Shown: positions 27,236 to 42,909 of the stretch, piece after piece
How positions within the stretch are numbered: the first letter of the stretch is position 1
How the letters are laid out: each line of letters opens with the position of its first letter
Virus record (IMG/VR): IMGVR_UViG_3300033121_001335
Location: 1 to 64,000 of that record
DNA: 64,000 bases
Direction: 5' to 3' (one strand)
From: a virus
Lineage: Duplodnaviria > Heunggongvirae > Uroviricota > Caudoviricetes
Position numbers and translations under genes: made by a program
Notes under the pieces: model-generated
The model's input: the letters and a program-made list of their open reading frames with translations, nothing else
Databases searched by the model: none
What the model was told of the DNA's origin: nothing

Positions 27236-27442
27236 ATGGAACCATTTTGGATGACTTCTGATGGTGTTTTTATAACACCGAGTAGTATGGATAATGAACA
27301 CATAAAAAATACAATTAAATGCTTAAAGGGAGAAGGAAAATCAATAATTCCTGATAAATACCTTGGTTTAAAAAAAGAACGTTGGTTAGAAATATTTAAT
27401 AATGAAGTCTTAAAAAGGAATATTCCTTTAATATTTAATTAA
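27236..27442 (+). CDS. small early protein, C-terminal tail family (..NIPLIFN)
   Basis: ORF track; ends ccttta atatttaattaa. Confidence 0.65.
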   Translation: MEPFWMTSDGVFITPSSMDNEHIKNTIKCLKGEGKSIIPDKYLGLKKERWLEIFNNEVLKRNIPLIFN

Positions 27443-27452
27443 ATATATTATT

Positions 27453-27713
27453 ATGAAACTGAAAAAGCTTAAAAGTAAATTGCCATCGGAACAGTCAACT
27501 GCTCTTTTAAACGTTAAATATCCTCATATTAATTATATTTCTGGGGAAAATCTCAATTTACATGATGCTTTTCTTACAATGCTTAAAGGCATGTGGGTTG
27601 ACAAAATTAAATACCCCAGCATTAAGCACATGGAAAAAAGACTGAATATGACAGAAAGAGGCATTATCAGAGTGGCTAAACTGAATAATTTAGGAGAAAG
27701 AAAACATATTTAA
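27453..27713 (+). CDS. hypothetical protein, possible HTH
   Basis: MTERGIIRVAKLNNL segment; lies between int and the tmRNA-like element. Confidence 0.55.
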   Translation: MKLKKLKSKLPSEQSTALLNVKYPHINYISGENLNLHDAFLTMLKGMWVDKIKYPSIKHMEKRLNMTERGIIRVAKLNNLGERKHI

Positions 27714-27723
27714 AACTTGAGTT

Positions 27724-27903
27724 ATGACAATATTAACATTTCCCGTAGAAATGCAAGAAGATGTGTATAAAGTAACAGGGCAGCCAGCTCCGGATGAAGT
27801 TATTGATGTCACAGTAAAATTTAAAGAAACACTTTCCGATGAAGTGTTAGGATTATTAAAAGCTTTAGGTGTTCAAATCAGATTTATGACACCTGTAAAA
27901 TAA
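27724..27903 (+). CDS. hypothetical 59-aa protein
   Basis: Manual translation MTILTFPVEMQEDVYKVTGQPAPDEVIDVTVKFKETLSDEVLGLLKALGVQIRFMTPVK*. Confidence 0.4.
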   Translation: MTILTFPVEMQEDVYKVTGQPAPDEVIDVTVKFKETLSDEVLGLLKALGVQIRFMTPVK

Positions 27904-27910
27904 ATGAATG

Positions 27911-28166
27911 GTTGTTTGACACTTATTTGACTATATGTAAGACACGGGTTCGACTCCCGTCTGCTCCACCGGATTAATATTGACCATTTATAGGCCGGGT
28001 AATTCCGGTGGGGCAGCTTGGCTTTGATTGCATATCAGTGGATAGGAATAGACTATTCAGTGTAATAAACGGCAAGAGAATTGCTATTGGTAGAACTGCA
28101 ATGAGAATTGCGGCCTAACAACGTATTGCCCCCCTGTATTTATACAGCGAAAAGGGGGCTTTTTTA
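27911..28166 (+). ncRNA. circularly permuted tmRNA-like element (acceptor piece, 39-nt linker, coding piece, terminator); 27941-27970 is alternatively an attP core
   Basis: T-arm ACGGG-TTCGACT-CCCGT (27944-60). 3' acceptor CTGCTCC-A-CC (27961-70). 5' strand GGGGCAG (28010-16) is its exact complement with a G3:U pair. CUUGGCUUUGA D-loop analogue. P2-like UUGCAUAU (28028-35)/AUAUGUAA (27933-40). Tag-like frame 28071-28118 GKRIAIGRTAMRIAA*. Terminator 28128-66. Confidence 0.45.
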
Positions 28167-28185
28167 ATTATTTAAACTAAATTTT

Positions 28186-28449
28186 ATGAGTGATAATAAA
28201 TACATTGTAGAATGTTCTGATGAAGAAGAATGGGAAGCTGTTAAGGCTAAGGGAAATGTTGATTTGGGGAGCTATGAGGTGTATCAATATAGCTATCCAG
28301 AAGAACCTATAGCTATTGATGTTAATAATGGAGAATGAAGTAGGCTGAGTTATTACACTAACAAAAGGGGAGGAGAATATAGCGACTATAAGTTTATAAC
28401 AGCTCAAGAATATTTAAACCCTGTTTCTGAGCCTCTTCTATTTAATTAA
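28186..28449 (+). pseudogene. tail-family gene (..SEPLLFN) interrupted by in-frame TGA at 28336-28338
   Basis: Manual translation MSDNKYIVECSDEEEWEAVKAKGNVDLGSYEVYQYSYPEEPIAIDVNNGE*SRLSYYTNKRGGEYSDYKFITAQEYLNPVSEPLLFN*. Both halves are in one frame. Confidence 0.5.
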
Positions 28450-28477
28450 ATATAAAAACCATCTATAAACTAAATTT

Positions 28478-28615
28478 ATGAAAAAGTTAAAAGCGGCACT
28501 ACTTATTACACTAGTTGTAACATTATTAACATTTCTTCATTCTTCGTGCAGTCCTTCTAGAAAAGATTGTAAGAATACGAAATATTACAAGCAAGGGGAG
28601 GGCTTATATTTATGA
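28478..28615 (+). CDS. 45-aa lipoprotein candidate
   Basis: Manual translation MKKLKAALLITLVVTLLTFLHSSC|SPSRKDCKNTKYYKQGEGLYL*; signal peptide plus lipobox Cys; ATGA overlap with the next gene. Confidence 0.45.
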   Translation: MKKLKAALLITLVVTLLTFLHSSCSPSRKDCKNTKYYKQGEGLYL

Positions 28616-28842
28616 AAACAGGTGATGTAGTTATAAGAACAGCAGATGAATTTATGGGAATGAAAAAAGGAGATTTAGCCACTGTAGTGTCATACAATCT
28701 AGAACTAAGTGGGTTAGCTGACATTACTCTTGAAGAATTTGCTGGTCAACATTCAAATAGTAGTTTAAGACTAGCAACACCTGAAGAAATACAAGCTAAG
28801 GGATTTGTGTTAAAAATAGCGGAACCATTGATGTTTAACTAA
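28612..28842 (+). CDS. small early protein, tail family (..AEPLMFN)
   Basis: ORF track. Confidence 0.65.
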   Translation: MKTGDVVIRTADEFMGMKKGDLATVVSYNLELSGLADITLEEFAGQHSNSSLRLATPEEIQAKGFVLKIAEPLMFN

Positions 28843-28912
28843 TTAAATATTCCCTGCCGTATTTAATAATTATTAAATAACATGATAATTTCATGGGGTG
28901 AATATGCAGGCC

Positions 28913-28945
28913 ACAAGGCTATTTCTATAGCTCTTGTCTTTTTTT
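28913..28945 (+). terminator. intrinsic terminator
   Basis: ACAAGGCTAT..ATAGC(T)CTTGT followed by CTTTTTTT. Confidence 0.55.
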
Positions 28946-28965
28946 AACATTTAAAATTAAAAATT

Positions 28966-29124
28966 ATGAAAAAAGCAATGTTTACGGATAAAATGGCCAG
29001 AGAATCATTTATATTTTCTCCTCCAGAAAAAAAGGATAAGAGATGTAGTAATAATAAAATATATTCTACACCAAAAATTAATGTAAAATCTGTTGCTAAA
29101 AAACAATCTTTAGGACTCAATTAA
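28966..29124 (+). CDS. hypothetical 52-aa basic protein
   Basis: Manual translation MKKAMFTDKMARESFIFSPPEKKDKRCSNNKIYSTPKINVKSVAKKQSLGLN*. Confidence 0.35.
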   Translation: MKKAMFTDKMARESFIFSPPEKKDKRCSNNKIYSTPKINVKSVAKKQSLGLN

Positions 29125-29136
29125 AAACACATTGCT

Positions 29137-29334
29137 ATGACAAATGGAAAAATTGATTCTTTTGTAGAGCAGCTGATAGAATTCGATAGTGCGTATACAC
29201 CTATACATTTATTAGAAATATGTTCTAATAAAGAAATCCTCAGAAAAACAGAAGATGAAAATCATAAAAAGAAGGATTGGGCTTTAATACAGGCATTTGG
29301 CACTATGGAATATTTTATATTTTGTAACAATTAA
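29137..29334 (+). CDS. hypothetical protein
   Basis: ORF track; ends ..FIFCNN. Confidence 0.55.
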   Translation: MTNGKIDSFVEQLIEFDSAYTPIHLLEICSNKEILRKTEDENHKKKDWALIQAFGTMEYFIFCNN

Positions 29335-29361
29335 AATTAAATAAAAATTAAAAACAAAGTT

Positions 29362-29619
29362 ATGGGTACAACAACTAATGGAGTTTATGTAGGAGGGCGC
29401 TCTGAGAGGCGTTCTAAAGCTCGTCAGCAGCTTGAAAAACAATTAGAGCTTGGCACTAAACCAAGAAAAACTGGCGTTAAATGGTCTGATTATAAGCCTG
29501 AGGAGCTTATTTGGACAGTGCCGGAAAAACCAGATGAAAAGCCTAAACCAATCGCTGTTAAATTAACAGAATCAGACAAAAAAAGAATAAACAAAGAGTT
29601 GGAGGCTCTTTCAAAATGA
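29362..29619 (+). CDS. hypothetical basic protein
   Basis: ORF track; terminator downstream. Confidence 0.6.
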   Translation: MGTTTNGVYVGGRSERRSKARQQLEKQLELGTKPRKTGVKWSDYKPEELIWTVPEKPDEKPKPIAVKLTESDKKRINKELEALSK

Positions 29620-29671
29620 GAAAAATAGTCATATTAGGTTTTTAAATAAACATTTGTTGCAATATATAAAC

Positions 29672-29702
29672 AAAAGCCTCTCTTTAATTAGAGGGGCTTT
29701 TT
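29672..29702 (+). terminator. intrinsic terminator
   Basis: GCCTCTC (29676-82)/GAGGGGC (29691-97) flanked by an A-run and a T-run. Confidence 0.6.
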
Positions 29703-29714
29703 AAATTTTAAAAC

Positions 29715-29954
29715 ATGAAAGCAAAAAATTTAAAAAAAGGACTTAATTATAGAATAACTAGGAGTAATCATTTAACAAGTCATTTTAAAAATAACACTGA
29801 AATCACGGTGAGTAATATAAAAAATGGTAGAATTTATTGGGAAGCAAAAAATGGTGATGAAGATGATTTTGATATGGGTTCTCAGGTGGATTACGAAACA
29901 GAATTTGAACTAATAACATCAAATTCTGAACAACATCCATTAATATTCAATTAA
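29715..29954 (+). CDS. small early protein, tail family (..QHPLIFN)
   Basis: ORF track. Confidence 0.65.
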   Translation: MKAKNLKKGLNYRITRSNHLTSHFKNNTEITVSNIKNGRIYWEAKNGDEDDFDMGSQVDYETEFELITSNSEQHPLIFN

Positions 29955-29959
29955 AAAAT

Positions 29960-30196
29960 ATGAAACAAAGCACTACACCCCTGTTCTTTAATTACGGCTC
30001 TACAGCTAAAATAAGAATAAAAAAGGAAAATTGTTATGAAAATCCTGATTATCCTTGCTTATATGGAATTGTAACTAAAAAGCTTTGTTTCACCCTTCCC
30101 AAAGCTGCTGTAATAATGACAAAAACTCATGTATATATTCCTAATGAAATATACAGACAAGCATTAACAAAATATTATCAAAATGTAAAACTATGA
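29960..30196 (+). CDS. hypothetical protein
   Basis: ORF track; ATGA overlap with the next gene. Confidence 0.6.
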   Translation: MKQSTTPLFFNYGSTAKIRIKKENCYENPDYPCLYGIVTKKLCFTLPKAAVIMTKTHVYIPNEIYRQALTKYYQNVKL

Positions 30197-30453
30197 GCTA
30201 TGAATTAATAAGGAATCTTCCTAATAGCGGAATATTTTGGAAACTTACTAAAGAACAAGAGGATTGTCTAATAAGAATTCTTAAAAATAAGGGGTTAAGA
30301 ATAGGCTCAAAACAAGAAAAATCAACCGATTCCAATATAGCTTGGTATCCTAGTGGATATTGTAATTACATAAAGAACAAAACTTCTCTTTCCACTTATA
30401 AATTCACTGATTATTTCAGAGAGAGTATTTTTACACCCTTAATATTTAACTAA
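30193..30453 (+). CDS. small early protein, tail family (..FTPLIFN)
   Basis: ORF track. Confidence 0.65.
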   Translation: MSYELIRNLPNSGIFWKLTKEQEDCLIRILKNKGLRIGSKQEKSTDSNIAWYPSGYCNYIKNKTSLSTYKFTDYFRESIFTPLIFN

Positions 30454-30696
30454 ATGAATATAAACAATTTACCAGAGGAACTGAGAGCTTTGGCTTTATT
30501 AAGAGCTGAAAAACCCTCACGTTATAAAAATTTTAATAAACATGATGAGAGGCTGAATTATATGTTTGATTGGCAGGGTAGCCTCGAAGGATACGGATTT
30601 TGGATGAGGGCTTATGACAGTAACTACACAACAGAAGACATTAATTATGCTGCTCATATTTTAAATATTGAATCATTCCCTCAAATCTTTAATTAA
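30454..30696 (+). CDS. small early protein, tail family (..SFPQIFN)
   Basis: ORF track; TAATG junction. Confidence 0.65.
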   Translation: MNINNLPEELRALALLRAEKPSRYKNFNKHDERLNYMFDWQGSLEGYGFWMRAYDSNYTTEDINYAAHILNIESFPQIFN

Positions 30697-31037
30697 TGGA
30701 ATATAATAAGTTAACAGAAAAAGATGTAGGCAGATGTATATGTGTTTCCGATTCCACTGACTTTTTTATGATAGGATATGTTCATCCAGAATTTCATGTG
30801 GAAAATGATTCCGACACCACTGAATTTAGAGGAAAATTCACATATTATATATCGGCAGACAAAAAGTTTAGCAAAGATGCAATTTGGTGTTATGTGGCAA
30901 GTAGAAGGGGTTATAGAGAGGCCACTGAAAAACAGAAATATTGGCTTGATGTGTGTATTGCGGCTAATAAATATATACCCGAAAAAGAAGCTCTAAAAAA
31001 CTATAATTTAATTTCTGAACCACAAATTTTTAATTAA
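30696..31037 (+). CDS. small early protein, tail family (..SEPQIFN)
   Basis: ORF track; TAATG junction. Confidence 0.65.
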   Translation: MEYNKLTEKDVGRCICVSDSTDFFMIGYVHPEFHVENDSDTTEFRGKFTYYISADKKFSKDAIWCYVASRRGYREATEKQKYWLDVCIAANKYIPEKEALKNYNLISEPQIFN

Positions 31038-31312
31038 TGGATTTAGCAGACATACAAATAGGGCAGTGGTATGCATCTAATAATAAAGAACAGCCTAATT
31101 ATCATTTTAAAGCATCAGAAATATATGTTAAGAGCAAAAAGGCTAAAGTGTTAAAAGTGGGACGTTGGAAACACCAGCCTGCTGGCTATGGCGAAATGTC
31201 AAATCCTGATTATTGGAGAAATGCCACCCCTGTAAACTATTTAAACATAGAACATCTCATACCAGATGAATTTAAAGAAAATAGAGAAACAGAGCCACTA
31301 TTATTTAATTAA
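31037..31312 (+). CDS. small early protein, tail family (..TEPLLFN)
   Basis: ORF track. Confidence 0.65.
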   Translation: MDLADIQIGQWYASNNKEQPNYHFKASEIYVKSKKAKVLKVGRWKHQPAGYGEMSNPDYWRNATPVNYLNIEHLIPDEFKENRETEPLLFN

Positions 31313-31323
31313 AACTATATAAT

Positions 31324-31608
31324 ATGAAACATAAATTACCATTTTATGTAGTGATAAGTCGGTCAGGACCTAATAATAGCGGCCATCCAAATTATAAAAC
31401 ATCAGCTATATATAAGGATGGACAACAATATTTTAAGGTGGTGGATATTTCTACAAATAAAGAACATGGTAACACTGAGAATCATGTAACATACATCACG
31501 GAGGATGGTTACCACTTGTGGAGTATGTGTGTTAATGAAGTGTCAGAACAAGAGTATATAACAAATAGGGGGCTTGAATTAATTCATGAACCTCAAATAT
31601 TCAATTAA
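31324..31608 (+). CDS. small early protein, tail family (..HEPQIFN)
   Basis: ORF track. Confidence 0.65.
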   Translation: MKHKLPFYVVISRSGPNNSGHPNYKTSAIYKDGQQYFKVVDISTNKEHGNTENHVTYITEDGYHLWSMCVNEVSEQEYITNRGLELIHEPQIFN

Positions 31609-31654
31609 GGAATCAATTTTTAATTATAAACAAACAAATCAAAAAACAAACAAA

Positions 31655-32119
31655 ATGGCAACAAAAAAGCAAGAAACAATCACAGCATTGACAGTACAAT
31701 CATCAGTTCCAGATGCTTTACAAGCAATTAATGCACGCATCGCAGCAATGAAACACATTCAGGAATGTGTGTATTTAACATCTGGTAAAATCACTACAGG
31801 CAGTGGTGGACAAAAGGATATTAAAGAAGAAAAGAATGTTACAGAATTAGTGAAGGCTTTTTCTGGTATTCTCTTCCGTGCCAAAGCCATCGAAGAAGCC
31901 TATGACGAATTAGGTATTGATTCATATCCAGCTGTAAAGGTGGATGGTGGTACAGTGGAAGAGTGGAAAAAAGACATTCTTCTCCGTATTGAAATCATCA
32001 ATCAAAAAGACACTCTGGATGAATTAAACAGCTTAAAGAAAGAGTGGGAAGATTTGATGGACAAAGAAGATAAGAAAGCAATGCTTGTGAAAAAAATGGA
32101 AAAATTCGCCAACGGCTGA
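31655..32119 (+). CDS. hypothetical protein (154 aa)
   Basis: ORF track 31586..32119 trimmed to ATG at 31655 (MATKKQETI...) after an A-rich leader; ends ..KFANG; own terminator. Confidence 0.6.
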   Translation: MATKKQETITALTVQSSVPDALQAINARIAAMKHIQECVYLTSGKITTGSGGQKDIKEEKNVTELVKAFSGILFRAKAIEEAYDELGIDSYPAVKVDGGTVEEWKKDILLRIEIINQKDTLDELNSLKKEWEDLMDKEDKKAMLVKKMEKFANG

Positions 32120-32141
32120 TTTTTTTGTTGATTATTAAACT

Positions 32142-32178
32142 AAAGGGTGTGTAGTTTTTATAGCTGCACACCCTTTTT
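32142..32178 (+). terminator. intrinsic terminator
   Basis: GGGTGTGTAG (32145-54)/CTGCACACCC (32164-73) plus T5. Confidence 0.7.
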
Positions 32179-32190
32179 AAATTTTATTTT

Positions 32191-32451
32191 ATGAGAAATA
32201 TAATGGATTTTGATGGAAACAGAGAGCAAATAGCAGTTAATAACAATGAAGAGTTTAAAAAATTAATTCCAATTTTAAACCTAAGATTTAAAGGCTGGAA
32301 AGAAGGAATGGGAAGTGGGGATTATCCACTTTATATTATACTGGAGGGAGCATGGGATGGACATACAAACATTAAACAAATTCATAAAGCCGTAATACAA
32401 GCCTCAGAATATTATACAGAACAAGAATGTATTTCTAATATATTTAATTAA
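32191..32451 (+). CDS. small early protein, tail family (..CISNIFN)
   Basis: ORF track. Confidence 0.6.
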   Translation: MRNIMDFDGNREQIAVNNNEEFKKLIPILNLRFKGWKEGMGSGDYPLYIILEGAWDGHTNIKQIHKAVIQASEYYTEQECISNIFN

Positions 32452-32464
32452 AACTCAGTGTTTT

Positions 32465-32734
32465 ATGGAAAAATGGTGTATTTTAAGAACCAAAGAAAAT
32501 TATATAGAACTTAACGATTGGTTTAATAAAAAGTATGGTTTAGAACTTTCAGACTGTAAAGGATATTTGCATTCTTATGTGGTGTCTCCTAATTGTGTTG
32601 TACCCTATTTAATGAGTATTTATAGCGATGGTCAAAGAGACAAAGAGGCCACAATAATAACAATAGAACAATTCAGAGAGCTAACGAAAGCTCCTGTTGA
32701 TAATAAAACTTTTGAGCCACAAATATTTAATTAA
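32465..32734 (+). CDS. small early protein, tail family (..FEPQIFN); KWxI/ITxEQF paralogue
   Basis: ORF track. Confidence 0.65.
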   Translation: MEKWCILRTKENYIELNDWFNKKYGLELSDCKGYLHSYVVSPNCVVPYLMSIYSDGQRDKEATIITIEQFRELTKAPVDNKTFEPQIFN

Positions 32735-32740
32735 TGTATT

Positions 32741-33043
32741 ATGAGAATGAATGAATTAGAAATAGGAAATTATTATAAATCCATATGGGGTAGTGGAGAA
32801 CAATATGGTATTATAAGATATGACAATATGTTCACGGACATTAAGAGTAGTAATTATGTACATGATAATTATGTTTATTTAGGTTACAATAAAACCATAA
32901 CTGCTAAGGGGGATGGCAGCGGTGCCAGTAATGAATGGAAACCATGCACTGAAGAGGAAATAAGGATATTTGAAGACCAATTTGAAAAGCAGTTTGGCAA
33001 TAAAAAGAATAAAAAAGCATTTACGCCCTTAATATTTAACTAA
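32741..33043 (+). CDS. small early protein, tail family (..FTPLIFN)
   Basis: ORF track. Confidence 0.65.
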   Translation: MRMNELEIGNYYKSIWGSGEQYGIIRYDNMFTDIKSSNYVHDNYVYLGYNKTITAKGDGSGASNEWKPCTEEEIRIFEDQFEKQFGNKKNKKAFTPLIFN

Positions 33044-33199
33044 TTAAGGCCAATTATAGCACTCGTTTGAAATAAAACGTGAGGAAATAATAATCCAAGA
33101 TGCGTCCATAAATGCATTTGGACAAGGGTGCTTTTCATCATCCTATTTGGCCTGTGGTGCTATAAATTGGTTTTTTAATAAATTAAAAAATAAATTAAT

Positions 33200-33472: not shown

Positions 33473-33490
33473 CAAATAAAAACAAACAAA

Positions 33491-33824: not shown

Positions 33825-34670
33825 ATGGAAAAAACTAATTATTTAGAAACGAAATATCAGGGGATTATTCCCTATCAAATAGAAGAAGGAAAAAAACATA
33901 TTACGTTAGCCCCCGGTGTATATCAACTTGGCTATTATGAAATTGCTCCTATGTGTATTGTTGACCACTTTATGCCATTAAAAGAGCAAGACAGTCTTAT
34001 AAGATTTAAAGATAGTGTTGTTGACGATGTAGTGAATAAGGTGGATAAATTCTTTTCTCAGAATAGTGTAGATGCCTATAAAGAATTAAAATTAGTGCAT
34101 AAAATGGGCATGATTATACATGGTCCTCATGGAACAGGTAAAACAAGTTCTGCTATGTTAGCCCTAAGAGCTATAGCTAAAAAATATGATGCTATATGTC
34201 TTGATTGTACGCCCAGAACTTTAAATAACTGTATAAACACTATAAAAAATATCAGACAGCACCAAAAAAATCCCATTATAATGTTTATGGATGAATTTGA
34301 GGTGGAAATGAGAGAAAGAGAGGAGCAGTGGCTGCCATTTTTAGATGGGACAGGAAGTTTTGAGAATTTTGTTTTTATAGCTTGCACCAATTATATAGAC
34401 AAAATTCCTGATAGGATAAAAGATAGAAAATCCAGAATTAAACACATTGTGGAAATTAAGGGACTGCCAATGGCTGTATATTCTGAATATATTAAAGACA
34501 GACTTCCAAATTTAAAATCTGAAGAGTTAGCCGAATTTGCTTTTAAAGCTGAAAATGAAAAATTGACTATTGACCAAGTGAAAAATGCTCTTATAGATTA
34601 CAGAATTGAGGGCTGGTCTATAGACAAGGCTATAAAGGTGGCAGCTTCTATAAAGGACGAATCTATTTAA
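33825..34670 (+). CDS. AAA+ family ATPase
   Basis: Walker A IIHGPHGTGKTS and Walker B IIMFMDEFE. Start moved from TTG at 33801 to ATG at 33825. Confidence 0.8.
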   Translation: MEKTNYLETKYQGIIPYQIEEGKKHITLAPGVYQLGYYEIAPMCIVDHFMPLKEQDSLIRFKDSVVDDVVNKVDKFFSQNSVDAYKELKLVHKMGMIIHGPHGTGKTSSAMLALRAIAKKYDAICLDCTPRTLNNCINTIKNIRQHQKNPIIMFMDEFEVEMREREEQWLPFLDGTGSFENFVFIACTNYIDKIPDRIKDRKSRIKHIVEIKGLPMAVYSEYIKDRLPNLKSEELAEFAFKAENEKLTIDQVKNALIDYRIEGWSIDKAIKVAASIKDESI

Positions 34671-35166: not shown

Positions 35167-35202
35167 AAAAACAGGGGGAAGGACAAATTCTCCCTGTTTT
35201 TT
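35167..35202 (+). terminator. intrinsic terminator
   Basis: CAGGGGGAA (35172-80)/TTCTCCCTG (35188-96) plus T6. Confidence 0.7.
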
Positions 35203-35228: not shown

Positions 35229-35483
35229 ATGGACGAATTATTAGAACAAGCACAAAAAGACTATCCTATAGGAACTAAATTTAAAGTGGCTCATATAGAC
35301 CACAATCCTTCTGAATATATTGTAGCTGGTGGTTGGAGGTGGGAAGATAATGAAAAAAGAGTCATTCTTTGTGATGTCGTTGGAAGCGCAACGGGCTATG
35401 CCCCCTGTCTTAAATACAAGAACACATGGGCTCCTATAATAGAATTAGGAAACATTATTTTCGAACCATTAATATTTAATTAA
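35229..35483 (+). CDS. small early protein, tail family (..FEPLIFN)
   Basis: ORF track. Confidence 0.65.
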   Translation: MDELLEQAQKDYPIGTKFKVAHIDHNPSEYIVAGGWRWEDNEKRVILCDVVGSATGYAPCLKYKNTWAPIIELGNIIFEPLIFN

Positions 35484-35484
35484 T

Positions 35485-35745
35485 ATGAAACATGAAAACT
35501 TTATAGTGCAAGTGAAGACTGAAGAAGAGTTTTTAAGTGTTCTCAAATCTATGGAACACTCGCTTCCAATTTTAACATATAGTTCACACAAAGATAGTTA
35601 TAAACAGTTTGTTCCACCCACTGGTGTGTATTATATAGGTGTTCATAATAATTCTGGGTGGTATAATGGCAGCTGTTCCTATCCCTTTATAACTTTTGAA
35701 GAATTTTTACAGAAAGAAAAATCCGAGTGTATAATATTTAATTAA
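35485..35745 (+). CDS. small early protein, tail family (..SECIIFN)
   Basis: ORF track. Confidence 0.65.
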   Translation: MKHENFIVQVKTEEEFLSVLKSMEHSLPILTYSSHKDSYKQFVPPTGVYYIGVHNNSGWYNGSCSYPFITFEEFLQKEKSECIIFN

Positions 35746-35753
35746 ATTCTTTT

Positions 35754-35921
35754 ATGAATATATGTACGAAAATCAAGCAGAGATTTAATGAGCTAAGGAT
35801 AAAAGGTAAAAAGAGTATAAAATTTGATAAAAAGGAAACAACAGAAAAGCAACTGGAAGAACTCAGAGAATGTGGATATACAGTAAAAGAAATTAATAAT
35901 AATATAATTATATCAGAATGA
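35754..35921 (+). CDS. hypothetical 55-aa protein
   Basis: Manual translation MNICTKIKQRFNELRIKGKKSIKFDKKETTEKQLEELRECGYTVKEINNNIIISE*; ATGA overlap. Confidence 0.4.
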   Translation: MNICTKIKQRFNELRIKGKKSIKFDKKETTEKQLEELRECGYTVKEINNNIIISE

Positions 35922-36208
35922 AAACAATAGATTATGCTGCGGGAGACATAGTAGTGTGTTTGCGGGCTATAAAAGATAGGGGCGGTAAGCATAAACAGTC
36001 TAAATCGGTTATAAAAGACTATTTTTACAAATGCATTGGTGTATATAATCCCACTGTATATAATCCAAAAGAGGGTATCACTTGTGGATTAGACGGCTTT
36101 ACATTTATTCTTACAGCTTCTAGGTTTAGAAAGGCCACAGAAGAGGAGCTGTTATTATATAATTCAGGAGCTAAATCTATTAATGTACAATATATAATTT
36201 TTAATTAA
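35918..36208 (+). CDS. small early protein, tail family (..QYIIFN)
   Basis: ORF track. Confidence 0.65.
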   Translation: MKTIDYAAGDIVVCLRAIKDRGGKHKQSKSVIKDYFYKCIGVYNPTVYNPKEGITCGLDGFTFILTASRFRKATEEELLLYNSGAKSINVQYIIFN

Positions 36209-36474
36209 TGAATCAACATATAATGGAAAATCTAAAAAACGCTTTTATTCCCGGTGTAAAATTTAAAAGACACCCTAATCATGTAACTTGTCTTAAAGAC
36301 AAAATATACACTGTAGCTTCTCCACTTAGGATAGTCAGCGGGAACACTACAGAAGATTTAATGGTGTGTACAGTTGAAGAAGCTTATGTACATATATGCA
36401 ATAATGGAAAAGATTGGGCTACTATTCTAGAATCTAATCCTGTAATAAATGATAATCCCTTAATATTTAACTAA
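36208..36474 (+). CDS. small early protein, tail family (..DNPLIFN)
   Basis: ORF track; TAATG junctions on both sides. Confidence 0.65.
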   Translation: MNQHIMENLKNAFIPGVKFKRHPNHVTCLKDKIYTVASPLRIVSGNTTEDLMVCTVEEAYVHICNNGKDWATILESNPVINDNPLIFN

Positions 36475-36863
36475 TGAGTAGTATAAAATTTAATCCAATA
36501 GAAAGATTTATAATAATAGAGCCTGTAATAGATGAAGTGTATTGGCTTCAGTTTTATGATGATAGGTCTAAAACTCAACCCACTGATTATTTATGGCTCA
36601 CTAGATGGGGAAAAGACGGAAACAATAAATTTTCAATATGTACATATCATAATGAAAAATATAAAAACAGTTGGTATTCTGAAGATGTTGCAATTTTTAC
36701 ATCTTCTATATCTGGTAATAGACATAATTTATATTTACCAAGAACAGAAGAACTAGTTTGGCACAGAGCAATGGAACTCATTGGAAAAACCAGTCCCGTT
36801 TCAAATATAGAAGAGTGGCTTAAAAAAACTACAATTAATAATGATATTTTAATATTTAATTAA
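36474..36863 (+). CDS. small early protein, tail family (..NDILIFN)
   Basis: ORF track. Confidence 0.65.
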   Translation: MSSIKFNPIERFIIIEPVIDEVYWLQFYDDRSKTQPTDYLWLTRWGKDGNNKFSICTYHNEKYKNSWYSEDVAIFTSSISGNRHNLYLPRTEELVWHRAMELIGKTSPVSNIEEWLKKTTINNDILIFN

Positions 36864-37093
36864 TGGGAAATAAGGCAGATGAGGCTAAAGATGCCATAGA
36901 TGAGCTTCTTAAAGAAAAAGAAAGCGAAATAGAAGATTTACAATCAGAACTAGATGATATGACATCAGAAAAAGATGATTTACAAGAGCAATTGGATGAA
37001 TATAAAGAAGAAAATAAGAATCTAAAAGATATTATAGAAGCATTAGAAAACAAAATTAAACAATTAACAGCTATTCCTCATATATTTAATTAA
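36863..37093 (+). CDS. acidic coiled-coil protein, tail family (..AIPHIFN)
   Basis: ORF track. Confidence 0.65.
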   Translation: MGNKADEAKDAIDELLKEKESEIEDLQSELDDMTSEKDDLQEQLDEYKEENKNLKDIIEALENKIKQLTAIPHIFN

Positions 37094-37095
37094 TT

Positions 37096-37299
37096 ATGAA
37101 ACAATCAAAAGGCGTATTAATAACAGAATTAATAGTGACACTATTTCTGATGATAAGTTATATATGGTTGTGTTTATCAGATGAAGCCTCTGGGGGAATA
37201 TCCACAATGGTAGTTTGGTTTGTAGGATATATAACAATATTAGATAAAATTACTAAATTTGTAACATGGAATTTTGACCCCCAAAATTATAAAATATGA
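37096..37299 (+). CDS. small membrane protein
   Basis: Hydrophobic spans LITELIVTLFLMISYIWL and MVVWFVGYITIL. Confidence 0.55.
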   Translation: MKQSKGVLITELIVTLFLMISYIWLCLSDEASGGISTMVVWFVGYITILDKITKFVTWNFDPQNYKI

Positions 37300-37874: not shown

Positions 37875-38607
37875 AATAATAGCAATCGGTGATACACATG
37901 GCAGGGCTCTTTGGAAAGATGTTGTTGAAAAGCATAAAAATGCAGATAAAATAGTGTTGATTGGAGATTATTTTGATACACATGACGACATTTCTCCAGA
38001 ACTTCAAATGATAAATTTTAGGGAAATTTGTCAGTATAAAGAAGCTCATAAAGAACAAATTGTTCTGCTTATAGGTAATCATGATGAGCACTATTTTCCA
38101 TTTATGGGAAATTCTGGTACATCTGGATTTAATGCAGGAGCTGCTCCAGCAATAGGACACTTATTAATGACATACAAAGACCTGTTACAAATGGCTCATT
38201 ATGAGGATAATATATTATTTACCCATGCTGGTGTAGGAGAAACATGGTTTAATGCTAATATTCCCGAAATAAAAGAAGAATGGAGCGCTAAATATATGTC
38301 AGACAGCATTAATGATGTATGGAAATATAAACCTCTTTCTTTTAAATTTAACGGTTGGAGAGATTCATCGGGGGACGAAATAGGACAAACACCAATATGG
38401 ATAAGACCCAGAGCTTTATTACAAGACACTAAAAATATGAGAAAAGCTGGAATTATTCAAATAGTTGGACATACGCAGGTGACTAAAATTGATGTAGAGG
38501 GTAGTAAGAAAAATACAGGAGGGAAACTGTTTATGATAGATGCTCTGGGTACATCCGGAGAATATTTAGTTATTAAAGATGGAGAATTTATTGTTAAAAA
38601 ATGCTAA
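37867..38607 (+). CDS. metallophosphoesterase (calcineurin-like Ser/Thr phosphatase family)
   Basis: Motifs IGDTHGR, LIGDYFD, GNHDE, FTHAG, VGHT. Confidence 0.85.
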   Translation: MSEIIAIGDTHGRALWKDVVEKHKNADKIVLIGDYFDTHDDISPELQMINFREICQYKEAHKEQIVLLIGNHDEHYFPFMGNSGTSGFNAGAAPAIGHLLMTYKDLLQMAHYEDNILFTHAGVGETWFNANIPEIKEEWSAKYMSDSINDVWKYKPLSFKFNGWRDSSGDEIGQTPIWIRPRALLQDTKNMRKAGIIQIVGHTQVTKIDVEGSKKNTGGKLFMIDALGTSGEYLVIKDGEFIVKKC

Positions 38608-38610
38608 AAT

Positions 38611-38907
38611 ATGAAATATAGTAAAGAATTAAATGGTGTGTACCACGCTAAAAATCATACATATACATATCTGGTAGAATTTAATAATGGAATTAGTGGA
38701 TGTGGATTAAAGAATGGCAATAATGCTAGAGATAATAATTTTGATGTATTTTTTACCACTTCTGATTTTAATAAAAATTCAGATGGTTATGACTACGTTT
38801 TAGCAGATGAACGCCATACAAATTGGCTGAAATCATGTAAGAAAATAGGAAAATTTACATTAGAAATAAAACAAATAGAATTGGTGGAACCATTATTATT
38901 TAATTAA
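38611..38907 (+). CDS. small early protein, tail family (..VEPLLFN)
   Basis: ORF track. Confidence 0.65.
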   Translation: MKYSKELNGVYHAKNHTYTYLVEFNNGISGCGLKNGNNARDNNFDVFFTTSDFNKNSDGYDYVLADERHTNWLKSCKKIGKFTLEIKQIELVEPLLFN

Positions 38908-38920
38908 AACAAGAAAAATT

Positions 38921-39283
38921 ATGAAAGAAGAAAAAATTATTGATAAAACAAAAAATTCAATAAACACCTTACATCCCTACAGATTAGCAAATGACTTATG
39001 GGTTTATGATGATGAAGATTTGGGGGTTTATAGCGAAGCCTTCGTTATGGGTAGTTCTGAGGTAATAAATCATCTGGTAGGTATGGAATGTGATAAATTT
39101 ACTATGTTTATATCTGCACAACCTATACCAGAATATGATGCACATTTAGTAAAAATTAAGGGGGATGGCAGTGAGGGCTGGTATCAATTACAAGGTACTG
39201 GAATGGAGCATTGGCTATGTGGGCAGGTGCTGGCTTATTTCCCAGATTATCCTTCAGACATATATGTGAAGTTGAAAAAATAA
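38921..39283 (+). CDS. hypothetical protein
   Basis: ORF track. Confidence 0.65.
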   Translation: MKEEKIIDKTKNSINTLHPYRLANDLWVYDDEDLGVYSEAFVMGSSEVINHLVGMECDKFTMFISAQPIPEYDAHLVKIKGDGSEGWYQLQGTGMEHWLCGQVLAYFPDYPSDIYVKLKK

Positions 39284-39332
39284 ATTTGGATAAAAGTAAT
39301 AAAATATACGCATTAATTAAAGTTTAATAAAT

Positions 39333-40202
39333 ATGGCAAAATTTAAAAAGGGTGACATAGTAGTTCTTAAAAAAGACTCTGAATATTATATCCCCAAAGC
39401 CCCAAAATATAGTAGTAATCCAATTCATACAGAAGGAGTTATTACTTCAGTAAGTTCAGGAGAATTTGGCATTCAAGTAAAATGGAATAACAACACTACA
39501 AATGGTTATTCTTTTAAAGATTTAGAATTATTCAATCAAAAAACAGAAAAAATGGCAACAAGAAAAACAACAACAAAACAATTTCAATTAGAAGCCGGAC
39601 AGTATTTTACAGCTACTTATGGCAAGAAAAAGGTGAGAGGAGTGGTGGCGGACGCACCAGATGATTACGATAATTTTGTATTATATGGAAAAGATTTTGA
39701 TGATGATGCCGAAGATGATGACGCAGAATTTAGCACACAATTATACATCGATATGTATGGGAGGGAGGACCAAAGTCACACAGATGTGTTAAAAGACTAC
39801 GGAATTACTAATTTTGTTTTATTAACAGATAAGAGACAAAAGGCTATTGTTGATGGAGATAAATGCCTAACTGTAGCGGGACATAAAGTGCATATTAAGG
39901 GTAATTTCGTAAATTTTGGGTGTGGCGCTGTTAGCACCACTAAAAAAGAAATAAAAGACTTTTATGCAGTGTATAAGGATGTAGATGTAAATGAGCATAT
40001 GCGTTATAAAGAGTTGATAGACGAAATAGGCGAAACAGCATTTGAAGAGGCTGTAGCTTTTTATAATCAATTCAAAATGTACACTACAGCTCAGCAAAAG
40101 GCATTTAATAATCTTGTAAAAGAAATGGATAATGCTGACAATGTACTCTTAGAAGATTTGAATAGGAAAGAAGTGGATGAATTAATGAAGAAATTAGACT
40201 AA
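39333..40202 (+). CDS. fusion protein: N-terminal tail-family module (..DLELFN) joined in frame to a larger downstream domain
   Basis: TTC AAT CAA at 39531-39539 sits where family members have TTY AAT TAA. An A-rich leader plus ATG (39552, MATRKTTTKQ) follows. Confidence 0.6.
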   Translation: MAKFKKGDIVVLKKDSEYYIPKAPKYSSNPIHTEGVITSVSSGEFGIQVKWNNNTTNGYSFKDLELFNQKTEKMATRKTTTKQFQLEAGQYFTATYGKKKVRGVVADAPDDYDNFVLYGKDFDDDAEDDDAEFSTQLYIDMYGREDQSHTDVLKDYGITNFVLLTDKRQKAIVDGDKCLTVAGHKVHIKGNFVNFGCGAVSTTKKEIKDFYAVYKDVDVNEHMRYKELIDEIGETAFEEAVAFYNQFKMYTTAQQKAFNNLVKEMDNADNVLLEDLNRKEVDELMKKLD

Positions 40203-40210
40203 AAATAAAA

Positions 40211-40238
40211 AAAGAGGGGAGAAATTCCCTCTTTTTTC
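40211..40238 (+). terminator. intrinsic terminator (GAAA loop)
   Basis: GAGGGGA-GAAA-TTCCCTC plus T6. Confidence 0.65.
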
Positions 40239-40239
40239 T

Positions 40240-40247
40240 TAAATTTG
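40240..40247 (+). promoter_or_regulatory. -7 promoter box TAAATTTG, 5 nt upstream of the polymerase ATG
   Basis: Matches TAnnTTTG; spacing implies a leaderless or near-leaderless mRNA. Confidence 0.45.
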
Positions 40248-40252
40248 TGCCT

Positions 40253-42181
40253 ATGTTAGAAAATAATGTATATATATTTGATATTGAAGGTGATGGTTTG
40301 CTTTCTACTATTACGAAAATTCATTGCGTTTGTGCATATAACATAAAAACCAGAGAAGCTGTACAATTGACTAATTATCAAGAAATTGAACAATTTTTTT
40401 CTGACGAAAAAGCCACTTTTATAGGACATAATATTATACGTTTTGACATTCCGGCATTAAAAAAGATAATAAAGGTAGAAATAAGGGGTGATGTAATTGA
40501 TACACTAGCAATATCGTGGGTGTTAGAAGAAAACAGAAAAAATCATGGATTGGGGAGCTACGGAGAGGAGTTTAATATAAAAAAACCAGAAATAAAAGAT
40601 TGGAACAGCCTTACAGTAGAGGAATACATTCATAGGTGCTCCGAAGATGTAAAAATAAACACCACTTTATGGAACAGGCAAATAAAATATTTAAAACAAG
40701 TTTATTATCAAGATGATAAGAATTTATATAGGTGGTTTAAATATCTGAGATTTAAACTAGAGTGTGTGTATGAACAAGAAACTGAGGGGCTGAGATTAGA
40801 TGTTAATAAAGCTAAAAAGCACTTTAATGAGCTCTCTATTCTTAAAGAGGAAAAAATCAAAGAATTAGAAGCTGCTATGCCTAGAGTAGCCATTAAAAAA
40901 AAGAGGGTGTATAAAGATGCTGTAAAAGATAGTAATGGTAATGTTTTTGAAAAGGGTGACCTGTTTTATAATTCTCAACCTATTAGCAGGAAAAAAGAAG
41001 AAATAATAGAAGAAAAAATCATAGGTTGGAAAGAGCCTAATGCTAATAGTCATGTTCAGATAAAGAATTGGTTATACAATTTAGGTTGGATACCACAAAA
41101 TATACAGCATAAAAGAAATAAAAAAACTGGTGAGATAAAACTTATTCCTCAAATAAAAAGCCAATTTGAAATAGGAGAAATATGTGATAGTGTTAAATTA
41201 CTATTTAAAAAAGAACCAAAATTAGAGGCTTTAGGAGGATTGTCGGTGCTTACCCATCGTATTAGTATATTTGAAGGATTCATATCCGATGAGGAAAATG
41301 GACGCATATATCCCTCTATGAATGGTTTAACTAACACCCTGCGTCTTAAACATAGGGTAATTGTCAATCTACCTAGGGCTGGGAGGGCGTATGGGGAGGA
41401 CATTAGGGGGTGTTTAATAGCTGATGAAGGATGCATTTTATGTGGAAGTGATTTAAGCGGTATAGAGGATAGCACTAAAAGACATTTTATATATGATTAT
41501 GACCCTGAATATGTAAAAAGTATGGACACTCCGGGGTATGACCCCCATTTAGAGCTCGCTGTATTGGCAAAATTTATGACCAAAGAGGATGCTGATTGGT
41601 ATAAGGAAGAATCCAAAAAACGTAAAGATGAAGCCTATAAAGCCTCTACAGAAGACAATCAGAGGTTTACAGCTTTAACAGCTAAAAGGTATGTGGCTAA
41701 AACTACTAACTTTGCAGCAACATATAAAGTAGGAGCTAAGGCCTTAAGTGTATATCCCGGTATTAATTTAGGAATGAAGGAAGCAAAGAGGGTAATAGAT
41801 ACATATTGGAAAAGAAATAAGGCTATTTTGGACGTAGAAAATAGTTTAAATGTCAAAGAGGTATATGGGCAAAAATGGCTTTTTAATCCTGTTAGTAGAT
41901 TTTGGTATACATTAAGGGCTGATAAAGATAGATTTAGTACATTAAATCAGAGTACGGCTGTATTTGTATTTGATAAGTGGCTTACAGAAATTAAAAAAGC
42001 TGGTGTTAAAATACCATTCCAATACCATGATGAAATAGGATTTAATGTTAAAAAAGAGAAAAAAAGAGAAAATACAGCGATTATTAAACAAGCCATACAA
42101 ACTGTTAACGACAAATTAAAACTAAATATAACAATAGGATGCAGTGTTGATTATGGTAAAAAATATAGTGATATACATTAA
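40253..42181 (+). CDS. family-A DNA polymerase with 3'-5' exonuclease domain
   Basis: Exo I IFDIEGDGL, Exo II GHNIIRFDIPAL, motif B RYVAKTTNFAATYKVG, motif C YHDEIGF. Start moved from GTG at 40247 to ATG at 40253. Confidence 0.9.
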   Translation: MLENNVYIFDIEGDGLLSTITKIHCVCAYNIKTREAVQLTNYQEIEQFFSDEKATFIGHNIIRFDIPALKKIIKVEIRGDVIDTLAISWVLEENRKNHGLGSYGEEFNIKKPEIKDWNSLTVEEYIHRCSEDVKINTTLWNRQIKYLKQVYYQDDKNLYRWFKYLRFKLECVYEQETEGLRLDVNKAKKHFNELSILKEEKIKELEAAMPRVAIKKKRVYKDAVKDSNGNVFEKGDLFYNSQPISRKKEEIIEEKIIGWKEPNANSHVQIKNWLYNLGWIPQNIQHKRNKKTGEIKLIPQIKSQFEIGEICDSVKLLFKKEPKLEALGGLSVLTHRISIFEGFISDEENGRIYPSMNGLTNTLRLKHRVIVNLPRAGRAYGEDIRGCLIADEGCILCGSDLSGIEDSTKRHFIYDYDPEYVKSMDTPGYDPHLELAVLAKFMTKEDADWYKEESKKRKDEAYKASTEDNQRFTALTAKRYVAKTTNFAATYKVGAKALSVYPGINLGMKEAKRVIDTYWKRNKAILDVENSLNVKEVYGQKWLFNPVSRFWYTLRADKDRFSTLNQSTAVFVFDKWLTEIKKAGVKIPFQYHDEIGFNVKKEKKRENTAIIKQAIQTVNDKLKLNITIGCSVDYGKKYSDIH

Positions 42182-42183
42182 TT

Positions 42184-42375
42184 ATGGAAAACTTAAAATT
42201 AGACATATTCAAAAAACAAGAAAGCGCCTACTATCCTATACATTCAAAGAACTATTGTTGGAAGGGAATATTTGAATATTTAATGTGGTATAAGGTGGAA
42301 GAAAAAACAACATTAATTAGTGTGGGAACTAAAGGACTTTTAGCCTTTAATATTCCTGCTTTTTGTTTAAATTAA
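42184..42375 (+). CDS. hypothetical protein
   Basis: ORF track; ends ..AFCLN. Confidence 0.55.
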   Translation: MENLKLDIFKKQESAYYPIHSKNYCWKGIFEYLMWYKVEEKTTLISVGTKGLLAFNIPAFCLN

Positions 42376-42381
42376 TAAATT

Positions 42382-42618
42382 ATGGAAAAGAAAATAGCAG
42401 TGTATTGTCCCACCCCAGAAATATTTGAATTAGTTGCTAGCAAAATTAATTGGCCTCATGGGAATATTTGGTCTAACTACCAAGAACGTACTGTAGTAGA
42501 CATTTCTCTTAAACAATATTGTAATAGAGAATATTATGAAAATAAAAAAGAAAAATATAATATACTCACCTATAGTGAATGGATTGGTGAGGATGGGGAT
42601 GTATTAATTTTTAATTAA
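42382..42618 (+). CDS. small protein, tail family (..GDVLIFN)
   Basis: ORF track. Confidence 0.65.
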   Translation: MEKKIAVYCPTPEIFELVASKINWPHGNIWSNYQERTVVDISLKQYCNREYYENKKEKYNILTYSEWIGEDGDVLIFN

Positions 42619-42624
42619 AAAATT

Positions 42625-42909
42625 ATGGAAAAATTACCAGAAAAATGGTTTATTAACCCAACCAATGAAAATGAGAGCATGGCTGTATCAAATTGGTTTG
42701 CCCAATATAGAAAATACTCAAAAGGATGTGAAGAATCATATAATTGGTATTTTCCGGCTTATGAAAATAGTGGAGAATTACAATTTTGTTATACACACGG
42801 AAAAGTAAAAGGCAATTTAATGGATGGCTACGAACAAATAACGTTTTCTCAATTTAAACAATACGTTCTAGAAGAAAATGATATTTTTACTCCCTTAATA
42901 TTTAATTAA
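42625..42909 (+). CDS. small protein, tail family (..FTPLIFN); KWFI/ITFSQF paralogue
   Basis: ORF track. Confidence 0.65.
   Translation: MEKLPEKWFINPTNENESMAVSNWFAQYRKYSKGCEESYNWYFPAYENSGELQFCYTHGKVKGNLMDGYEQITFSQFKQYVLEENDIFTPLIFN

Follow-up and report, generated by a model that had tools for sequence, protein, structure and literature searches.

A 64,000-nucleotide (nt) stretch of viral DNA (IMG/VR record IMGVR_UViG_3300033121_001335, positions 1 to 64,000; hereafter the window), which is part of a tailed-phage genome, carries a cluster of small genes whose products all end in one short peptide, here called the IFN tail, with the consensus ..[E/D/T/N]-[P/L/F]-[L/Q]-[I/L/M]-F-N-COOH. Purifying selection acts on this peptide, the protein bodies that carry it appear largely unrelated, and the tail is restricted to one phage lineage, in which each member genome has its own flavour. 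We tentatively interpret it as a modular tag that would be recognised by a shared receptor.

Conservation of the tail peptide

Between positions 27236 and 42909, 21 intact open reading frames (ORFs; 68–129 amino acids, aa) on the plus strand end in [ILM]FN followed by TAA (Table 1). The most common variants are PLIFN (seven ORFs), PQIFN (four) and PLLFN (two), while PLMFN, PQLFN, PHIFN, ILIFN, VLIFN, CIIFN, YIIFN and SNIFN occur once each. The initial annotation had counted 22 tail ORFs; the 22nd, a third PLLFN case at 28186–28449, is interrupted by an in-frame TGA. Its orthologue in a related phage (L096:1498-1755; labels from L074 to L101 denote loci of relatives) is uninterrupted, with Trp where the window has TGA, and ends ..ILLIFN. 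A nonsense mutation, a leaky stop or an error in sequencing could each account for the TGA. Reading it as a sense codon was rejected, because 20 other window genes end in TGA and the codon is therefore not generally recoded.

Tail genes make up about half of the roughly 40 genes in this interval. Based on regional amino-acid composition, a gene would end in [ILM]FN with p = 5.8e-4, corresponding to 0.023 expected cases among 40 genes, and the binomial probability of the observed number is ~1e-57. The underlying strings are strongly over-represented compared to shuffled sequences, with 16 occurrences of ATATTYAAYTAA vs 0.54 and 31 of TTTAATTAA vs 7.2, and this surplus consists of tail-gene ends. 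We also found TTTAATTAA out of frame at about 52126, 63747 and 19141, where it had been reported. In a six-frame scan, all matches to P[LQH][ILM]FN (18/18) lie directly before a stop codon. The tail is thus strictly located at the extreme C-terminus, separated from the last structural element of the body by a short polar or acidic linker. Conservation peaks at the last three residues and fades upstream.

The pattern of variation places the constraint on the peptide. When columns are anchored at the stop codon, the first two codon positions carry much information and the third carries little, and one base past the stop the value is down to background. Across the last three codons, 11/63 wobble sites vary vs 3/126 non-wobble sites (Fisher p = 4e-4), which bears out both the earlier observation of variable wobble positions beneath fixed residues and the protein-level constraint deduced from it. 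Within the window, the choice between TTT and TTC, between AAT and AAC and among Pro codons equals the genome average. The tails of L096 have Phe as TTC in 7/14 cases, C being if anything over-used, and Leu at −5 (positions counted from the C-terminus, Asn being −1) is written there as CTT, CTA, CTC, CTG or TTA.

A separate gene-junction motif at the DNA level, which had been proposed in addition, is not supported: conservation stops at the stop codon, and Phe and Asn wobble tracks genome usage. Some of the observations behind that proposal hold in part. The stop was described as always TAA, and it is TAA in 21/21 window tails vs 69% of 87 other genes (p ~4e-4), but relatives use TAG (L097, L077) or TGA (L096) after the tail. 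The palindrome TTAATTAA is indeed usual at the stop; it arises as a by-product because AAT and TAA adjoin, and it is absent from the 4/21 window tails with AAC. Similarly, there are five TAATG overlaps with the next start, but the gap to that start, which lies between −1 and 156 nt, shows no difference from non-tail genes (Mann-Whitney p = 0.5).

Lineage, bodies and gene turnover

We compared loci by the identity of their DNA polymerase to that of the window. Many metagenomic relatives of this polymerase exist, and the tail is kept in those that are 59–96% identical. Relatives are present in runs SRR8299383, SRR30424959, SRR27448546-50 and ERZ965348. At 87–96% identity (L074, L082 and L097–L100, the latter from a wastewater metagenome), orthologues are retained together with their tails, and no change leaves the motif (YIIFN to EPLIFN, PHIFN to PLLFN, EPQLFN to EFLIFN). 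The orthologues of 36863–37093, for instance, end ..NPLLFN in L074 and L082 and ..NLQIFN in L096. In the latter locus (polymerase 64%), 14 of the 24 ORFs on 9 kb bear an IFN tail, mostly xLLIFN, and L076–L078 (59%) carry an acidic-aromatic variant (DDEFLIFN, EEFEIFN-TAG, EFLYEN, NFLIEN; EFL[IY][FE]N as the L076 pattern), the window flavour being EP[LQ]IFN. In relatives with polymerases of ≤56% identity, no such tails were seen up to a distance of 10 kb from the polymerase gene. Altogether, 82 tail ORFs with 59 distinct C-terminal 35-mers were obtained from six phage variants, and the terminal Asn is invariant.

Searches of deposited sequences gave little beyond these loci. Megablast of the 27–43 kb region against 50,697 deposited phage records yielded no match, and the best polymerase identity among these phages was 44%. 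Scanning IMG/VR returned a single distant, tail-less relative with the polymerase and isolated matches of chance type with CCNTTAATATTTAAYTAA, while GTDB genomes scanned with the polymerase and with GARCCNYWAATATTYAAYTAA contained no clade member. No recorded protein was identical to the window's polymerase or to its UvsX-like protein. At L082:4937-5156, the orthologue of 35918–36208 is frameshifted, its tail IEPLIFN-TAA being whole in the other frame; either the contig is misassembled here or the gene is a pseudogene. A non-coding "tail fossil" in L082 was rejected as an explanation, as the sequence is this frameshifted orthologue.

The flavours differ in a concerted manner. Position −5 is Pro in 16/21 window tails vs Leu in 10/14 L096 tails (p = 5e-6), and the shift also holds in reciprocal-best-hit orthologues. 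Because the Leu codons of L096 are diverse, the change looks like the result of selection rather than gene conversion.

The bodies show no comparable uniformity. Based on Pfam and PHROG, no family is common to two tail proteins. After trimming of the tails, blastp detected one related pair and hhalign one trio above 95% probability (32465, 33200 and 42625, sharing a KW domain), followed by weak pairs (35229 with 36208, 63%; 28186, 35485 and 42382, 36–56%; 30696 with 38611, 56%), with all remaining pairs below 13%. Homology running across all the bodies, as expected within a single paralogous family, was not detectable after trimming. These comparisons leave at least 14 groups of bodies between which no similarity is detectable, in line with the modular tail on unrelated bodies suggested earlier. 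A protein search with 42625 returned one near-identical match.

Some of the same domains occur in fused form elsewhere. In L080, a tail-less relative, a 705-aa protein (L080:4272-6389) is a tandem array whose copies include homologues of the bodies of 30696 and 35229 (E 1e-5 to 3e-8), and the KW domain forms the N-terminus of a 406-aa protein. Most occurrences of the 35229 domain (YPxGTKF..KWAEII) among 1.84 billion representative proteins are in proteins of 250–1043 aa with 2–10 matched stretches. In the KW and YPxGTKF families, the two that were checked, the tail begins where the fused forms begin their next domain or linker.

Further observations concern these domain families. The long L080 proteins (L080:4272-6389 and L080:12818-14038) combine small domains in tandem (SH3-like plus R.AT.EE, YPxGTKF..KWAEII, KW) and have no Pfam or PHROG match, and comparable arrays of up to ~1000 aa are widespread in metagenomes (P0123–P0131). 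In the window itself, the 402-aa protein with a KW-like domain akin to the stand-alone tail proteins (Table 1) ends ..RLLELFD, resembling a clamp-binding motif; its shorter L074 counterpart ends ..KLLKMF. Stand-alone YPxGTKF copies in another phage clade (L101:9754-10255; P0132, P0141, P0142, P0151) carry a different conserved hydrophobic tail (..IINNYN[IL]F, ..INNNYSII, ..IIDNYNIV). As the L101 tail is confined to two adjacent paralogues, we regard it as a family feature rather than a shared tag.

Tail genes turn over as units. Compared to the window, L074 lacks the whole genes 35485–35745 and 36208–36474, the second indel starting and ending inside tail copies; at the site of 38611–38907 it has a non-homologous 98-aa ORF ending ..QEPLIFN. 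Homology blocks with L082, L097 and L096 resume at tail starts (window positions 35734, 36457 and 42892). Compared to L096, nine tail genes are permuted (tau 0.33), whereas seven non-tail genes are collinear (tau 1, p = 4e-4). Mosaic breakpoints therefore coincide with tails, as is typical of conserved boundary (linker) sequences, with the caveat that alignments run into the mutually similar tails anyway and that small accessory genes turn over fast regardless. Frame-independent nucleotide conservation, the other hallmark of boundary sequences, was not found, since the variation lies mainly at synonymous sites and the motif is always in frame. The recombination boundary put forward in the initial annotation thus agrees with the indels and permutations; since the constraint is on the peptide, it is not the primary reason for conservation, and recombination would more plausibly follow from the tails than explain them.

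Candidate functions of the tail

The explanation that we favour, while giving it somewhat less than even weight, is a modular recognition tag at the C-terminus, by which modules encoded as separate genes would dock onto a shared receptor. It corresponds to the hub-binding peptide among the roles suggested in the initial annotation. The tail would act as a short linear motif, read with its free carboxylate by one receptor common to all carriers, and would give each separate small domain the same address on a common scaffold or machine. The concerted change of flavour suggests that such a receptor would be phage-encoded or lineage-specific rather than a deeply conserved host hub. As a distant relative joins some of the same domains in one tandem protein, non-covalent tethering via the tag may replace covalent linkage. 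Tail genes are near-identical over their last 15–21 nt plus the stop/start junction and could therefore easily be gained, lost and permuted as cassettes, any new body landing upstream of a tail being plugged at once into the same receptor. A more specific version, which we consider possible and decidedly less secure than docking as such, is an address-tag system: a signal of about five residues, the last three nearly invariant (..IFN-COOH), would act in the manner of PTS1 or an effector translocation signal and plug fast-evolving, cassette-shuffled single-domain accessory proteins into one phage-specified receptor, as the split, non-covalent equivalent of the tandem proteins. Receptor and tag would then co-evolve, which would account for each lineage having its own tag flavour.

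Several points weigh against the docking proposal. No receptor was identified, and no sliding clamp, TPR or PDZ domain was recognised in the window, which may be a partial genome. The AAA+ ATPase encoded inside the cluster was considered as a receptor and rejected: it belongs to the classic AAA clade, has by eye no aromatic pore loop, is off the syntenic site in L096 with its 14 tails, and tail-less phages have homologues of it. For 35918 and 42625, single-sequence AlphaFold2 models reached predicted local distance difference test (pLDDT) scores of 45 and 51, too poor for a fold search or for judging the freedom of the tail. Codon choice is also not fully random, as ATA is enriched at Ile(−3) (14/14 in L096, p = 0.002) and TTA at Leu(−4) (p = 0.01–0.04). 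Together with the excess of TAA, this means that a nucleotide-level effect or common ancestry has some part in the pattern. Common ancestry of the tails could explain the moderate bias if enough time had passed to randomise transitions but not transversions. Finally, a degron would be equally compatible with all the evidence for docking.

A degron is the main rival, although we judge it unlikely. An AAA+ protease, either of the host or recruited by the phage, would rapidly break down the many early or accessory proteins that bear the tail, which would confine their action to a short period of the infection. The features pointing to carboxylate-dependent reading match this role, namely the position at the extreme C-terminus, the near-invariant last three residues, the hydrophobic core and the short unstructured linker. 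ClpX recognises unstructured terminal degrons, with ssrA as a C-terminal class (PMC12723719). The phage moreover encodes its own permuted transfer-messenger RNA (tmRNA) within the cluster, with a tag ending ..MRIAA, and hence interacts with C-terminal tagging and ribosome rescue. However, the tail resembles neither LAA-type nor other degrons known to us, the concerted Pro-to-Leu change at −5 between sister phages is unexpected with a conserved host protease, and it is left unexplained why relatives concatenate the same modules without internal tails.

Four further explanations are less likely than both docking and degradation. Self-assembly, in which tails bind each other or the small domains (beads on a string) or fold back as a structural cap over the face that meets the next domain in fused proteins, seems improbable. 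It would suit the covalent concatenation of the same domains in relatives, the hydrophobic, Asn-flanked character of the tail, and the hydrophobic extension of different sequence (IINNYN[IL]F) on the stand-alone YPxGTKF copies of the other clade. One tail would, however, have to suit many unrelated folds, the coiled coil included; the L101 tail is limited to two paralogues, and the structural models are unusable in this respect.

We give even less weight to a DNA element, that is, a conserved junction for short-homology cassette exchange or for initiation of the next gene, the peptide being incidental. The indel against L074 with both ends in tails, the homology blocks resuming at tail starts, the permutation of tail genes against collinear non-tail genes in L096, and the genes for a Sak4-like annealase, a UvsX-like recombinase and exonucleases would agree with it, as would the enrichment of ATA, TTA and TAA and the core tail codons, which all consist of A and T only. 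Against this, the conserved pattern has codon periodicity and breaks off at the stop, the wobble positions of Phe and Asn are free, the motif stands always in frame at the C-terminus with gene ends as its surplus, and the distance to the next start is as variable as in non-tail genes; BLAST blocks extend into mutually similar tails regardless.

Very improbable, in our view, is an effect of the nascent peptide in the ribosome, whereby, in a host without Shine-Dalgarno use, the last residues would tune termination, ribosome recycling or the restart of translation at the next cistron. The strongest conservation at the last three residues, the invariable TAA in the window, the tightly packed operons with their TAATG overlaps, the rarity of Shine-Dalgarno-like cores (see below) and the tmRNA within the cluster speak for it. 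However, stop-to-start spacing is no different from that of non-tail genes, which are interspersed in the same operons, relatives use TAG and TGA, and a lineage-specific shift at −5 is hard to square with a conserved ribosomal tunnel. Plain paralogy, with the tail as the slowest-evolving remnant of one ancestral gene, is hardly credible: the KW trio, the few pairs at 36–63%, loose SH3-like and R.AT.EE features seen by eye in several bodies and the ATA/TTA bias hint at common descent, but most tail-trimmed pairs stay below 13%, the bodies range from a coiled coil to KW, YPxGTKF and other domains, and a tail outlasting all body similarity would still need selection on the tail.

About half of the genes in this 16-kb block encode small proteins of unassigned function, which are normally intractable, and a shared tag offers one experimental handle on all of them. 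If the tail is an address or docking tag, phages would use short-linear-motif logic at a scale described mainly for eukaryotic sorting and secretion effectors. It would then be conceivable that long multi-domain phage proteins are interconvertible with swarms of tiny ORFs, and that modules function once recombined upstream of a tail. As a degron, the tail would provide a global timer for early proteins. Either way, the tail is a candidate portable tag for Bacteroidota-type hosts and a search pattern for similar phage systems.

Genomic context and comparison with known systems

From ~19 kb onward, where the GC skew switches, the genes of the window lie on the plus strand. Apart from the replication and recombination genes listed in Table 1, this arm encodes a metallophosphatase, DnaB-like and other helicases, the Sak4-like annealase, a primase-like protein and the UvsX-like recombinase; exonuclease genes are present as well. 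A Shine-Dalgarno-like core precedes just 5/79 window genes, and initiation regions are enriched in A at −12/−11 (0.80/0.70) and −3 (0.70). We take this A-rich, Shine-Dalgarno-poor initiation to be the Bacteroidota pattern, as known from translation in Flavobacterium johnsoniae, and on this ground a Bacteroidota-type host appears probable. A Bacteroidota −7 promoter box (TAnnTTTG) within the tail was rejected, as the sequence does not fit. Scanning for hairpins with T-runs gave 16 sites vs 7.4 expected. Terminator-like hairpins of this type on the plus strand (29672–29701, 32142–32176, 35174–35193 and 40208–40237) divide the tail-gene region into several polycistronic units that include replication genes as well.

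Table 1. Tail ORFs and other annotated features of the window, with one group of proteins from related loci
Position	Strand	Feature	C-terminus	Further observations
~5.6-13.8 kb	-	Terminase large subunit, portal and major head genes
26216-27046	+	Tyrosine recombinase
27236-27442	+	Tail ORF, 68 aa	..RNIPLIFN-TAA	Residues 5-62 match phrog_16964
27911-28118	+	Permuted two-piece tmRNA gene		Rfam RF04321, 53.7 bits (gathering threshold 47); also ARAGORN
28186-28449	+	Interrupted tail ORF	..SEPLLFN-TAA	In-frame TGA at 28336-28338
28612-28842	+	Tail ORF, 76 aa	..IAEPLMFN-TAA
29715-29954	+	Tail ORF, 79 aa	..EQHPLIFN-TAA
30193-30453	+	Tail ORF, 86 aa	..IFTPLIFN-TAA
30454-30696	+	Tail ORF, 80 aa	..ESFPQIFN-TAA	Reciprocal best hit L096:1007-1228 ends ..SLLIFN
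30696-31037	+	Tail ORF, 113 aa	..ISEPQIFN-TAA	Body homologous to residues 394-483 of the L080 tandem protein
31037-31312	+	Tail ORF, 91 aa	..ETEPLLFN-TAA
31324-31608	+	Tail ORF, 94 aa	..IHEPQIFN-TAA
32191-32451	+	Tail ORF, 86 aa	..ECISNIFN-TAA	Identical tail in L082 orthologue
32465-32734	+	Tail ORF, 89 aa, KW-domain family	..TFEPQIFN-TAA	hhalign 96-97% to 33200 and 42625
32741-33043	+	Tail ORF, 100 aa	..AFTPLIFN-TAA
33200-33472	+	Tail ORF, 90 aa, KW-domain family	..SDEPQLFN-TAA	L082 orthologue ends ..TEFLIFN
33825-34670	+	AAA+ ATPase, classic clade		Inside tail-gene cluster; weak clamp-loader PHROG matches
35229-35483	+	Tail ORF, 84 aa, YPxGTKF..KWAxII domain	..IFEPLIFN-TAA
35485-35745	+	Tail ORF, 86 aa	..KSECIIFN-TAA	Whole gene missing from L074
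35918-36208	+	Tail ORF, 96 aa	..NVQYIIFN-TAA	L074 orthologue ends ..QEPLIFN
36208-36474	+	Tail ORF, 88 aa	..NDNPLIFN-TAA	Gene missing from L074; indel ends within tails
36474-36863	+	Tail ORF, 129 aa	..NNDILIFN-TAA
36863-37093	+	Tail ORF, 76 aa, acidic coiled coil	..TAIPHIFN-TAA
38611-38907	+	Tail ORF, 98 aa	..LVEPLLFN-TAA
40253-42181	+	Family-A DNA polymerase	..KKYSDIH	No tail
42382-42618	+	Tail ORF, 78 aa	..DGDVLIFN-TAA
42625-42909	+	Tail ORF, 94 aa, KW-domain family	..IFTPLIFN-TAA
45401-46609	+	402-aa protein, just past DnaB-like helicase gene	..RLLELFD	KW-like domain, residues ~131-204
L076:1248-1520, 2221-2574, 3834-4070; L080:661-918, 1601-1858, 7892-8077; L074:2319-2588		ILN-motif proteins

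The tag frame of the tmRNA reads GKRIAIGRTAMRIAA-TAA, and a hairpin with a T-run lies near the gene at ~28139–28166. The 3' part of the tmRNA is 86% identical in L096:70-246, exceeding the conservation of the neighbouring genes.

Other C-terminal motifs were observed in the same genomes. A second tail class, ..[KG]LPF-COOH, resembles the SSB tip and occurs at 43331–43552 (73 aa) and 51393–52130 (245 aa), the latter corresponding in position to the PF03167 UDG gene of L076; this type is conserved in L074, L097 and L076 (..KLPF, ..NFPF, ..TLPF). Proteins at 48901–49848, 58114–59238 and 63765–63962 on the plus strand and at 14475–14762 on the minus strand form a third class with an acidic run and Tyr (..SDSDDDY, ..KMEEHY, ..YEEDY, ..EDEEEEY), recalling T7 gp2.5 and gp4; the tail of 48901–49848 is kept in L074, L076 and L087. 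The motif ..[SA]ILN[AV]YP..N[IV][LV] or ..SILNVK.M..YE recurs on small proteins with similar N-termini (..IPTA.EF..), which probably form one paralogous family (Table 1). Directly after the polymerase gene, a 63-aa ORF (42184–42375, at the same place in L074, L097 and L096) ends ..NIPAF[CS]LN, with Asn after a hydrophobic stretch, and is distinct from the IFN tail. The ORF at 29137–29334 ends ..EYFIFCNN.

Among known systems, the closest precedent by analogy would be the clamp-binding C-termini of phage T4. Its DNA polymerase (gp43), gp33 and gp55 have highly similar, interchangeable hydrophobic/acidic C-terminal motifs (PMC2988020), which dock onto one hub (PMC2988020, PMC7892883). The L076-type tails (EFLYEN, EFLIFN) are acidic and aromatic in the same style. 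In T4, however, there are three carriers, all replication or transcription proteins, whereas here there are 22, all small and of unassigned function, and the polymerase, helicases and primase-like protein of the window have no tail. Neither has the invariant terminal Asn a known counterpart in the T4 motif, and Pfam, PHROGs and PDB sequence searches of the window, possibly only part of the genome, detected no clamp.

The bacterial beta-clamp motif QL[S/D]LF (or QLxLxL) is likewise a pentapeptide, often C-terminal, found on many unrelated proteins, and closes with a hydrophobic pair whose last residue is Phe (PMC9690074). The pattern x-[L/P/F]-x-[I/L]-F can be overlaid on Q-L-x-L-F, with NLLIFN of L096 as the nearest case, but the match is limited to the Phi-x-Phi-F skeleton. 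In window tails the first position is E, T, D, N or I rather than Gln, which occurs in the tails solely at −4, and the tail has an extra invariant Asn after Phe and is never internal. As Gln is missing there, Asn is added, the polymerase is tail-less and no clamp gene was found in the window, we assign the tail to neither the beta-clamp nor the T4 motif.

SSB ends in the tip ..D-D-D-I/L-P-F-COOH, and T7 gp2.5 and gp4 have acidic C-terminal tails. These peptides are also read with their free carboxylate by many partners. The IFN tail, in contrast, ends F-N-COOH rather than in an aromatic residue and is found on 22 small proteins, whereas the SSB tip belongs to one hub protein. The ssrA tag and ClpX C-motif degrons share with it the extreme C-terminal position, the dominance of the last three residues and portability (PMC12723719). 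The IFN tail, however, has no resemblance to LAA-type sequences. To our knowledge, no degron tag is common to many phage proteins.

Sorting signals include the T4 capsid-targeting sequence, which is N-terminal and cleaved by the prohead protease, encapsulin cargo-loading peptides and the peroxisomal targeting signal PTS1 (SKL-COOH). As in encapsulin cargo and PTS1 proteins, a short C-terminal peptide could send many unrelated proteins to the same destination, and the packaging or sorting tag suggested in the initial annotation is conceivable. The tail genes, however, lie in the replication arm and not among structural genes, and unlike the T4 sequence the motif is C-terminal, the N-termini not being conserved. 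Tandem phage proteins of the polyvalent type resemble the relatives in which the same small domains are strung together, and the terminal reassortment of secretion effectors shares a fast-changing repertoire, one terminal signal and the reshuffling of cassettes. The window differs in having each module as a gene of its own and the common element at the C-terminus, and nothing there implicates a translocation machinery.

No description of such a tail came up when the literature was searched for the peptide strings or for phage early proteins that share C-terminal motifs, short linear motifs or degrons, in agreement with the initial annotation. Overall, a portable C-terminal peptide is already known as a kind of element; new, as far as we can tell, are its scale, with 22 genes from at least 14 families making up half of a gene block, its lineage-specific flavours, the link to tandem fusions and its cassette behaviour.

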